64,000 nt of DNA, from IMG/VR virus record IMGVR_UViG_2880372215_000004. The stretch is one strand, 5' to 3'. Below the pieces are notes generated by a model, which saw only the letters and a program-made list of their open reading frames with translations, did no database searches and had not been told where the DNA came from. This document shows positions 19,350 to 20,524 of the stretch, one piece after another. Positions within the stretch are counted from its first letter, which is position 1, and each line of letters starts with the position of its first letter. The stretch is from a virus (Duplodnaviria > Heunggongvirae > Uroviricota > Caudoviricetes). Made by a program: the position numbers and the translations under genes.

Positions 19350-19362
19350 CACTTATTTTCCA

Positions 19363-19386
19363 GGCTCGCTTCGGCGGGCCTTTTTT
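19363..19386 (+). terminator. rho-independent terminator (GGCTCGC-UUCG-GCGGGCC plus UUUUUU)
   Basis: 7-bp stem with one G-U pair, tetraloop, T-run; just after tRNA-Arg. Confidence 0.65.
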
Positions 19387-19518
19387 GTATCTGCGCCACG
19401 CCCGGCGCATATCAACCACAGAGCCTTTCGGGGGTGAGCTTACGGAGTGGTCAGTGTGACTTTCTCTGTGGGCAGATCGCTCCCGGGCGTTGGCTCACCC
19501 ACCCAAAGGAACGTCACG

Positions 19519-19950
19519 ATGTTTGGAATCTTCAAAAAGAAAACCCGCAGAGCGGCAGCGGAAATTAAAAAGTTTGAGAAACGCGATCTGGCACAGGCGG
19601 TGATTAACGCTGCATACCTGGTGGCCTATGCAGATGGTGAATGCGAGGCATCCGAGAAAGCGAAGATCGAACAGGTCTTACGTAATCAGCCTGCGTTGTC
19701 TGCGTTTACCTCGGAAATTAATGCGATTAGCGCAACTATTATCGGTCAGCTGGATACCAATTTTAAAATTGGTCGTCGTGCCGCGTTACGCGAGATTGAG
19801 GATGTGAAACACGATACGCGTGAAGCGGAAGATGTGCTGGATGTGGCGGTGGCCATTGCGGAGGCAGACGGCGAAATTGAGCCGGAAGAGCGCAAGGTGC
19901 TGGAAGAGATTGCCGGTGTTCTGGGTCTTCGTCTGGAGAATCACCTGTGA
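19519..19950 (+). CDS. TerB-like (tellurite-resistance-type fold) phage protein, 143 aa from MFGIFKKK
   Basis: ORF 19447..19950; AAAGGAA before ATG 19519; family call tentative. Confidence 0.55.
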   Translation: MFGIFKKKTRRAAAEIKKFEKRDLAQAVINAAYLVAYADGECEASEKAKIEQVLRNQPALSAFTSEINAISATIIGQLDTNFKIGRRAALREIEDVKHDTREAEDVLDVAVAIAEADGEIEPEERKVLEEIAGVLGLRLENHL

Positions 19951-20281
19951 CGGTAAAACTGCGCCTGGCTGTGGCTGCACTCCTGCTGTTTCTGGTGGTG
20001 ATGGTGGATTTCACCAGCAGAATCATGTCGGTGCTGGCGGATGGGGTGCTGGTCTGCGGCATTGTGGTATTGCTGTGGCCGGTGATAAAAAGAAACAGCC
20101 TGCATAATGCTTGATTTTTTTGTTTGCTGTTTATTAAAAACACTTCTGCATGGTGAATCCCCCTGTGCGGAGGGGCGATCAGCAACCAGGTATATGGGAT
20201 AATCGCGGATTCAGGTGCTGATACTGAATTCACCGGGAGGCACCCGGCACCATGCAAGAAAAAGAATGTGCATGCAAACAT

Positions 20282-20305
20282 GCCCCTCTCCGGAGGGGCT
20301 TTTTT
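20282..20305 (+). terminator. rho-independent terminator (GCCCCTC-tccg-GAGGGGC plus TTTTTT)
   Basis: Perfect 7-bp GC stem and T6 in the non-coding gap before the esterase gene. Confidence 0.7.
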
Positions 20306-20524
20306 ATGGGTAAAAAATGCCCGAATGGGTTCGGGCAATAGCATGAGATACTGATATTGTTGTGTTGTTATCGTGTGGATTTTAACCAGGGTTTATCAGG
20401 CTGCGCAACTGCGTGGCCTTTTTTCATTTCTTGGGCTGTAGTCCCCGAGTGTCATTCAGGCTTCCGGACTACAGCCAGCCCACTCCATATCTGATTTAAT
20501 ACACTATCCCGGCCGGGAGGAATA

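Follow-up and report, generated by a model that had tools for sequence, protein, structure and literature searches.

Shiga toxin (Stx) phages carry their toxin genes, stxAB, in the late region, between tRNA genes that follow the antiterminator gene Q and the sialate O-acetylesterase gene nanS-p. What stands at this position in a relative without toxin genes? We addressed this question with a 64,000-nucleotide stretch of viral DNA (IMG/VR record IMGVR_UViG_2880372215_000004; Caudoviricetes), hereafter called the window, in which positions 19350 to 20524 separate the tRNA-Arg gene argO from an esterase gene of the nanS-p type. The original prediction had read this interval as an empty toxin slot, containing only a TerB-like gene and about 570 bp of noncoding DNA with hairpins. 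We conclude with high confidence that it is the late-operon cargo ("moron") slot of an Sp10-type lambdoid prophage of Escherichia coli O157:H7, and that the slot is occupied, by the genes tciA and tciB.

Occupancy of the slot

The region from 17800 to 23000 was examined by direct reading, ARAGORN, a list of open reading frames (ORFs), and Pfam; features lie on the plus strand unless noted otherwise. The first gene in the slot, tciA (19519-19950), encodes a TerB-domain protein of 143 amino acids (Pfam TerB, 60.2 bits; PHROG 632; PDB 2JXU TerB, E = 4e-8) and corresponds to ECs_1959 of strain Sakai, annotated as TciA/TerB-like. The TerB-like gene is not alone, as had been assumed: the overlooked second gene, tciB (19947-20114), encodes a small hydrophobic DUF3927 protein of 55 amino acids (Pfam DUF3927, 62.3 bits; PHROG 1470, TciB-like), which RefSeq lists as "DUF3927 family protein" in many O157 genomes, and its GTG start codon overlaps the tciA stop codon (GTGA). 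For both proteins, the Pfam scores exceed the cut-offs. The intergenic DNA thus amounts to 410 bp (20115-20524) rather than 570 bp, and 255 bp of it consists of two small RNA (sRNA) genes described below.

Over positions 18900 to 20700, the window shows 100% identity with EDL933, with prophage Sp10 of E. coli O157:H7 Sakai, and with dozens of further O157 genomes, and at least 80% of this stretch was found in 356 of 5,426 complete E. coli genomes. Sp10 (ECs_1958 to ECs_1964) and the EDL933 prophage have the same gene order of Q, ileZ4, argO4, TciA/TerB-like gene, esterase, holin, and endolysin, although the Sakai annotation differs in having no tciB, STnc100, or AgvB. It does list a hypothetical protein, ECs_1960 (window 19763-20344, minus strand), antisense to tciA, tciB, and STnc100; this ORF is probably spurious.

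The predicted Stx-phage style layout of Q, tRNA genes, slot, nanS-p, and lysis genes proved to be real, with both flanks homologous to phage 933W and to an Stx1a phage. In BLAST comparison with 933W, homology covered 19057-19397 at 87% identity, including the tRNA promoter, ileZ, argN, argO, and a terminator, and resumed at 20130, which corresponds to 87 nucleotides (nt) after the stx2B stop codon; homology to the Stx1a phage began at 20134, or 95 nt after the stx1B stop codon. The breakpoints in these alignments bracket stxAB exactly. To their right, the window has in common with Stx1 and Stx2 phages STnc100, an anti-sRNA gene with a variable 5' part, a hairpin (hp3), and an inverted repeat. 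Phage 933W (Q, pR', ileZ-argN-argO, stx2AB, L0105/nanS-p, S, R, ant, Rz) thus resembles the window in its tRNA cluster and post-argO terminator (87% identity), in its STnc100, anti-sRNA, hp3, 5' untranslated region (5'UTR) hairpin, and nanS-p region (70 to 74%), and in a lysis cassette with a leader-bearing ant gene. It differs in its cargo, which is stx2AB (1369 bp) versus a leader plus tciAB (~730 bp) in the window, in its intact argN, in a Q gene and pR' region unrelated to those of the window, and in an AsxR-type 5' region of the anti-sRNA where the window has the GcvB-mimicking CACAACA.

All the marks of an Stx-type cargo slot are therefore present, namely, an upstream Q gene, the ileZ/argO cluster with its terminator, bracketing breakpoints, and downstream genes for NanS-p, a P21-type holin, and endolysin. 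Neither stxA and stxB nor remnants of them, the marks of a Shiga toxin-converting phage, were found: when the whole window was searched by tblastn with Stx1A/B and Stx2A/B and by word-size-7 blastn with both operons, no match rose above chance level (E of at least 0.12). The description of the prophage as an stx-negative relative was thus borne out.

How the slot varies was determined by scanning IMG/VR for the invariant STnc100 core and measuring the distance from argO to STnc100 in 120 viral loci. The slot was empty in 34 of them (~104 to 138 nt), and a 108-amino-acid ORF filled it in 18 (~725 nt) and in one more with an insertion sequence (IS) element; tciAB gave ~800 to 857 nt and stx2 ~1435 nt. 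Further contents were rare small-ORF fillings and stx1, the Stx1 loci having no argO. Rfam searches of representatives confirmed the empty state, in which STnc100 begins ~77 nt after the last tRNA. The window, with ~730 bp containing tciA and tciB as opposed to ~77 to 105 nt in empty loci, does not belong to this class. From these distance classes it follows that the concept of a slot is correct and that the slot is highly polymorphic; the window is in the tciAB state. Empty-slot relatives with the same STnc100 element are common (34 of the 120 STnc100-bearing loci), and this is what the original prediction had itself named as evidence against its reading. As for the recurrent 108-amino-acid ORF (MVFSALNIYHSYGVGRVNIDEASG...; loci L087, L093, L100, and others), it had no Pfam match, and the IS element disrupts the copy in locus L105.

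The cassette is widespread. A total of 789 of the 5,426 complete E. coli genomes (~15%) carry tciAB, with a median of four places per positive genome, and it occurs in 551 IMG/VR stretches, behind several Q types and with or without tRNA genes; in Klebsiella and other Escherichia phages it likewise lies between Q and the lysis genes. In the stx-negative phages JLK-2012 (JQ347801) and PPyecE_EH1910 (LC567835), the leader-tciA-tciB cassette precedes yjhS/nanS-p with 89 to 95% identity and is annotated as tciA/tciB, whereas the Q genes are different and the upstream tRNA genes are different or missing; JLK-2012 also lacks an AgvB-type gene and the 5'UTR hairpin. The gene names derive from phage P1. 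The tciA-tciB-tciC genes of phages P1 and P7 similarly comprise a gene with a TerB domain and, after it and overlapping it, a small gene of the DUF3927 type, and they adjoin a tRNA gene, but DNA identity is only ~67% and confined to the 3' part, P1 has the third gene tciC, and the upstream region of P1 is unrelated and devoid of the leader motif. Besides, Erwinia jumbo phages (Machinavirus; L333-L336) have a leader-terB-small ORF cassette directly after a tRNA-Cys gene near the start of the genome record, so that the cassette adjoins tRNA genes in these phages, in Sp10, and in P1 (where the tRNA gene follows tciC).

A defense role for tciAB and for an AT-rich gene group upstream of Q (see below) was considered and rejected, as neither gave a significant PADLOC match. 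A literature search for tciA/tciB or ECs1959/ECs1961 returned no experimental paper, the results for tciA/tciB being swamped by the unrelated "The Cancer Imaging Archive" and Trypanosoma cruzi TcIa/TcIb.

Small RNA genes downstream of tciB

The sRNA gene STnc100 (20119-20311; Rfam RF02076, 145.8 bits against a gathering threshold of 47) starts 5 nt downstream of the tciB stop codon. The predicted terminator hairpin at 20282-20305 (GCCCCTC/GAGGGGC followed by T6) is present and, given these boundaries, is the terminator of STnc100. The gene also follows stx1B and stx2B in Stx phages, and its terminator stem has undergone a compensatory change in the Stx1a phage. It has been located 75 nt after stx2B (PMC12370729), and a northern blot has shown its Sp5 homologue, EcOnc27 (PMC4104026); the EcOnc27 probe matches the STnc100 homologue downstream of stx2B.

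On the minus strand, the gene for AgvB1, an anti-sRNA that acts as a GcvB sponge, occupies 20312-20373 (Rfam RF02702, 96.5 bits against a gathering threshold of 56) and is identical to the family consensus. Its sequence (CGAUAACAACACAACAAUAUC...) has CACAACA, a mimic of the GcvB R1 target, in the variable 5' region, followed by a terminator hairpin and U6. The predicted GCCCGAA/TTCGGGC hairpin indeed exists, as (T)GCCCGAA/TTCGGGC(A) at 20318-20337, but it is this minus-strand terminator, and the strand had been missed. The EcOnc01a peak (Sakai 1941783-1941835, minus strand) maps to window positions 20312-20364 once the constant offset of 137 nt that separates the genome versions is applied, and EcOnc01a is AgvB1, encoded in Sp10 (Tree et al. 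2014, PMC4104026). The same study reported convergent sRNA genes 3' of the moron site, downstream of the Q-antiterminated pR', in Sp3, 4, 5, 9, 10, 11, 15, and 17, and showed for the identical Sakai locus that AgvB1 binds Hfq and antagonizes GcvB. It also found that AgvB, by mimicking the GcvB R1 target, relieves dppA repression and confers a growth advantage in bovine rectal mucus (PMC4104026). The window gene has every trait of the AgvB/AsxR family described there, that is, a 60-nt Hfq-dependent sRNA with a conserved ~42-nt 3' portion and terminator, antisense to and 3' of a moron, with the GcvB R1 target CACAACA in its variable 5' region; no difference was seen, the gene being AgvB1 itself. 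The sRNA pair and the slot arrangement are thus already known from Sp10, and the finding as originally posed is not new.

In other phages a conserved TTGACA stands 5' of STnc100, but no usable -10 element goes with it.

The hairpins are consequently no stray remnants of an emptied slot but parts of STnc100, AgvB1, and backbone elements that stand beside stx1 and stx2 as well. A scan for terminators recovered 6 terminator-like sites, compared with 2.1 +/- 1.6 in shuffled sequences, and the z scores of the hairpins ranged from -3.3 to -4.9. Two further elements had gone unnoticed, a fourth terminator-like hairpin (20398-20425) and the structured leader of tciA (19385-19518).

The tciA leader

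Between the terminator that follows argO and tciA lies a leader of ~125 to 140 nt that folds stably (19385-19518; 147.6 bits with R1, a covariance model [CM] built from tciA leaders). It comprises five covariation-supported helices, including two crossing interactions. Three of them besides hpA (19392-97/19404-09) are P1 (19416-23/19464-71), P2 (19432-39/19493-500), and P3 (19444-52/19475-83), and the hpA loop forms a pseudoknot (19399-403 with 19485-89). Stems are retained while their sequences change. The hpA stem is wholly different among clades (UGCGCC/GGCGCA, CACAUC/GAUGUG, CCUGUC/GACAGG, and GACGCC/GGCGUU), and its loop pairs with a site ~85 nt downstream as CGCCC/GGGCG, CGCUC/GAGCG, CGCAC/GUGCG, or UCUCAC/GUGAGA. 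Helix P1 takes forms such as CCACAGAG/CUCUGUGG or CCGUAGAG/CUCUACGG, with its 3' arm in the apical loop of the long P2-P3 hairpin. In an alignment of all types, 95.5% of cells were paired, compared with 22 to 53% in slid registers, and double changes occurred in 16 of 32 pairs, compared with 5.9 +/- 1.4 in shuffles; the columns of the loop pseudoknot, P2, and the Shine-Dalgarno (SD) sequence lay outside the model that produced this alignment. A simple nested hairpin was rejected, as P1 and the loop pseudoknot cross P2 and P3 and both covary.

At the base of the P2-P3 hairpin, an anti-SD sequence (CCUUU, 19424-28) is able to pair with the SD sequence (AAAGG, 19505-09). This pairing is possible in all copies and is part of the minimum free energy (MFE) structure in four of five divergent copies.

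The leader had no match in Rfam 15 at E of 1 or below in a 3.8-kb scan, and scanned alone in the most permissive mode it gave only noise (MIR156, E = 2.2). Neither was a catalogued Hfq-bound sRNA present at its coordinates in the supplement of Tree et al. (PMC4104026), nor did the literature searched offer anything relevant on an RNA motif associated with TerB or on a pseudoknot of lambdoid antirepressors. The leader is a real structured RNA, apparently undescribed.

A second copy of the motif (23808-23949; CM match 23808-23955, 64.8 bits, E = 5e-18) lies in the window between the endolysin and Rz genes, directly 5' of ant (23950-24645), which encodes a KilAC antirepressor (Pfam ANT, 98.9 bits). 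Every helix is kept in this copy, and its sequence is divergent. A match to the CM also stands 5' of ant in 933W (record L005, 7216-7360), and nhmmer and CM searches found the motif before a second ant type, a 246-amino-acid ORF, and an HNH-like ORF as well. The motif thus precedes at least five gene families, the 933W antirepressor included. Both copies in the window, like most of the inspected tciA copies in other genera, follow a terminator-like hairpin; that before the second copy (GGCACC/GGUGCC) is at ~23788-23803.

Before tciA homologues, the leader was found in Franconibacter, Pantoea, Pseudescherichia, Citrobacter, and Enterobacter, in Klebsiella phages, and in Erwinia jumbo phages, and it was absent 5' of distant tciA homologues (Dryocola, Serratia, Pectobacterium, Pseudomonas, and phage P1). 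A scan with the leader core gave 201 copies with sufficient downstream sequence; in 194 of these a TciA-family ORF begins 18 to 19 nt 3' of the leader, and the remaining 7 are followed by an apparently frameshifted tciA. Since the ORFs behind the leader include a subfamily with only 40 to 59% protein identity, the leader is more conserved than the protein that it precedes.

Flanking regions

On the left, the slot is preceded by a Q-like late antiterminator gene of the DUF1133 type (18403-18957; Pfam DUF1133, 351 bits, and Phage_antitermQ, 33.7 bits; PHROG 753, "anti-termination protein Q-like"), which is ECs_1958, "phage antiterminator," in Sakai; upstream of it are genes for DUF1367 and YbcO proteins, and the whole is a lambdoid late region. 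An intrinsic terminator hairpin with a T-run (19032-19057; AACCCGC/GCGGGTT; dG, -13.1; z, -4.93) follows Q and, from its position, is presumably tR'. Next to it, a putative tRNA promoter (19059-19087; TTGCGG, 17 nt, TATTAT) is homologous to the promoter "pT" annotated in 933W at L005 1583-1611, the BLAST homology starting at window position 19057, equivalent to L005 1581; it would be expected to act as a promoter here, too. The tRNA genes are an ileZ-type tRNA-Ile2 with a CAU anticodon (19097-19172; ARAGORN; Rfam tRNA, 72.5 bits; ileZ4, tRNA-Ile, in RefSeq) and argO, a tRNA-Arg with a UCU (TCT) anticodon (19273-19349; ARAGORN, Rfam, and RefSeq argO4). The sequence between them (19173-19272) aligns to argN of 933W, a tRNA-Arg (UCG), and is a decayed pseudo-tRNA in which neither ARAGORN nor Rfam recognized a tRNA, so that ARAGORN counted three tRNAs in 933W and two here. 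The left slot edge is formed by an intrinsic terminator 3' of argO (19362-19387; terminator scan, z = -3.34). Its homologue in 933W is annotated as the "terminator upstream of the stx genes," and it is kept 5' of tciA cassettes in other genera.

On the right, the nanS-p-type esterase gene (20525-22378; Pfam DUF1737, SASA, and DUF6645) has 92 to 95% DNA identity to yjhS/nanS-p of the Stx1a and PPyecE phages, and it is followed by genes with Pfam matches to a P21-type holin, DUF1327, and lysozyme/endolysin. It has been reported that nanS-p is present in non-Stx prophages, too (PMC10462455).

Between AgvB1 and nanS-p, we found two conserved hairpins. The first, hp3, is the third terminator-like hairpin downstream of tciB (20398-20425 with a T-run; stem 20398-20419; terminator scan, z = -3.93); it is kept in all five aligned phages, JLK-2012 included, and was recovered by RNAalifold. 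It overlaps a putative AgvB promoter with a -35 hexamer TTGCGC (complement of 20403-08) and a -10 hexamer TAAAAT (complement of 20379-84), separated by an 18-nt spacer and with 5 nt from the -10 hexamer to the mapped 5' end. On the plus strand, hp3 is likely to serve as a back-up terminator that insulates nanS-p and the lysis genes.

The second hairpin (20432-20482; inverted-repeat search, z = -4.18) is in the nanS-p 5'UTR and contains the predicted 11-bp inverted repeat, which is present as GGCTGTAGTCC/GGACTACAGCC at 20434-20444/20466-20476; only the predicted coordinates (20435-20477) were each shifted by one base. In most relatives the perfect repeat is 12 bp long, the commonest form occurring in 33 of 124 upstream regions, and the window differs from it by an extra AGCC duplication (20473-20476), which shortens the perfect repeat from 12 to 11 bp. 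RNAalifold on 16 variants retained the outer stem, in which three pairs covary and G.U-compatible changes occur; in one variant, pairing of the inner stem is preserved by two compensatory changes and three that are G.U compatible. The SD sequence of nanS-p is overlapped by another, small stem.

Several other features were noted in the window. A terminator-like hairpin (AGCCAUCAG/CUGGUGGCU with a T-run; 22463-22493) lies between nanS-p and the holin gene, where PasA/PasC sRNAs have been reported (Zhu, Shabalina and Storz, bioRxiv 2026). Between nin-type genes and Q, an AT-rich island on the minus strand (14637-17017; 31 to 37% GC compared with ~50% in its neighbors) contains genes for a Methyltransf_35 putative O-methyltransferase (329 amino acids) and a GHKL/HATPase_c_3 protein (463 amino acids); it gave no significant PADLOC match and may be a defense or moron module. 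In addition, Rfam identified RalA, the antitoxin sRNA of RalR/RalA, near the left end (1557-1735; 225 bits) and DicF near the right end (59738-59789, minus strand; 75 bits).

Discussion

Two rival readings of the interval were weighed. That the toxin slot is vacant, its cargo lost or never gained and its hairpins leftover control elements in ~570 bp of noncoding DNA, would agree with the absence of stx genes and with the layout shared with Stx phages. However, two well-supported genes fill the slot, truly empty loci look different, with only ~77 nt from the last tRNA to STnc100, and the hairpins are parts of sRNA genes that score far above the Rfam gathering thresholds and that adjoin stx1 and stx2 elsewhere. 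The presence of tciAB and the comparison with empty-slot loci already refute a vacant slot, and we give it next to no credence. It is also conceivable that the prophage descends from an Stx phage in which stxAB was swapped for tciAB by recombination in the conserved flanks. Indeed, the breakpoints match the boundaries of the stx cassette, and the sequence upstream of stx2A in 933W (L005 1886-1965, aligned with window 19362-19521) still has the terminator that follows argO, and of the leader motif it retains the first half of hpA (TATCTGCGCC) as well as the SD region (CCAAAAGGAAC), around a replaced core of ~90 nt. The stx2 and tciAB cassettes therefore share junction sequences, and exchange appears to have taken place within them. 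The direction of that exchange is not readable from the sequence, though, and a leader with its center replaced fits the entry of stx into a leader-bearing slot at least as well; furthermore, the Q gene and upstream region are unrelated to those of 933W, and tciAB is found after Q genes of many types and also in genera that lack stx. A former toxin phage is in our view unlikely, and we retain the reading of a polymorphic slot of an Sp10-type prophage that holds tciAB.

Alternatives were also weighed for the two RNA elements. Pseudoknotted leaders and riboswitches that sequester the SD sequence are known, and c4 RNA of phages P1 and P7 masks the icd-ant ribosome site. Like these, the tciA leader has a hairpin loop that pairs near the ribosome-binding region of the downstream gene, which in some copies is ant, and its SD sequence can be occluded; it differs in having no sequence or CM similarity to Rfam C4 or to riboswitch families, and in that its pairing is intramolecular, within a single ~125-nt fold. 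The leader probably gates the translation of genes that have been inserted into late operons. As a plausible but tentative account, the leader family, which occurs in lambdoid phages of Escherichia, Klebsiella, Pantoea, Franconibacter, and Citrobacter and in Erwinia jumbo phages, would be an undescribed, double-pseudoknotted, cis-acting RNA that gates the translation of genes inserted into phage late regions; instead of being a static repressor, it might switch in response to a ligand, to RNase III processing, or to a factor from phage or host. A riboswitch that senses a metabolite or ion, with a ligand related to TerB function, would be in keeping with the compact multihelix fold and its two pseudoknot-type interactions, the strong covariation, the conservation of the leader beyond that of the protein 3' of it, and a plausible SD/anti-SD expression platform. 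Yet the motif also precedes unrelated genes (two ant types, the 246-amino-acid ORF, and the HNH-like ORF), so that a TerB-specific ligand is unlikely, and neither a ligand pocket nor a conserved unpaired core was identified; the copies before ant and other genes thus weaken a TerB-specific riboswitch, and we find such a riboswitch improbable. For the inverted repeat before nanS-p, a DNA operator bound by a protein, for example a regulator of the divergent AgvB promoter, was considered instead of an RNA hairpin. Its arms are perfectly palindromic, with a 21-bp spacer of about two helical turns, and it lies 55 to 100 bp upstream of the putative AgvB promoter. Nevertheless, the G.U-compatible and compensatory changes, such as GGGCUGCGGUUC/GGACCGUGGCCC, fit only plus-strand RNA, and conservation does not extend to the loop, whose sequence differs between the 933W-type and the Stx1-type version. 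The retention of pairing through such changes favors a plus-strand RNA hairpin in the nanS-p 5'UTR, and an operator seems quite unlikely.

On the preferred reading of an occupied slot, the order 5' to 3' is Q, a tR'-like terminator, the tRNA genes with a putative promoter of their own, an intrinsic terminator, leader-tciA-tciB, the backbone, nanS-p, and the lysis genes. Translation of tciA would be coupled to that of tciB, whose product is a putative small membrane protein. In the backbone, STnc100 (plus strand) converges on AgvB1 (minus strand), hp3 overlaps the putative AgvB promoter, and the 5'UTR of nanS-p contains a stable hairpin. In the lysogen, AgvB1 is expressed from a promoter of its own, sequesters the GcvB R1 seed, and de-represses dppA (PMC4104026). 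Serial terminators (19362, 20282, and 20398) would confine transcription from the tRNA and STnc100 promoters in the lysogen and so keep tciAB, nanS-p, and the lysis genes off, and after induction Q-modified RNA polymerase would pass all slot terminators. The tciA leader might add a translational gate, with the anti-SD (CCUUU) pairing to the SD (AAAGG) at the base of the double-pseudoknotted hairpin. The stxAB genes, tciAB, the 108-amino-acid ORF, or nothing are alternative fillings of the slot, exchanged by recombination in the conserved flanks.

Some observations weigh against parts of this picture. The ant allele of the window (MKEMIS..., KilAC domain; 23950-24645) is unlike Sakai ECs_1965 and 933W ant (MNMMAVPFHG...). 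The window is therefore Sp10-like, from another strain or through recombination, and need not be Sp10 itself. Transcriptional read-through, promoter use, and insulation by terminators are predictions from the DNA, and a consensus scan of the plus strand from 18900 to 20600 found no sigma-70-like site for tciA or STnc100. The "tellurite/colicin/cell division" name of tciAB is a homology-based annotation carried over from phage P1. As regards the gate, the SD/anti-SD pairs are invariant, which covariation cannot confirm; because they never vary, this helix remains putative, and the leader of tciA in the window has an alternative MFE structure with the SD and anti-SD sequences unpaired.

As a polymorphic late-operon cargo slot of enterohemorrhagic E. 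coli (EHEC) prophages, the locus is a textbook case, with AgvB1 among the best-characterized phage anti-sRNAs, and the finding as originally posed matters little. It does carry a correction, in that stx-negative does not equal empty: tciAB is a frequent alternative cargo, often in several copies. The part worth following is the leader motif, a pseudoknotted RNA with strong covariation that a large proportion of EHEC genomes carry and that stands before tciA as well as before ant of Stx phages. If the leader controls the translation of ant, it could bear on prophage induction and toxin release.

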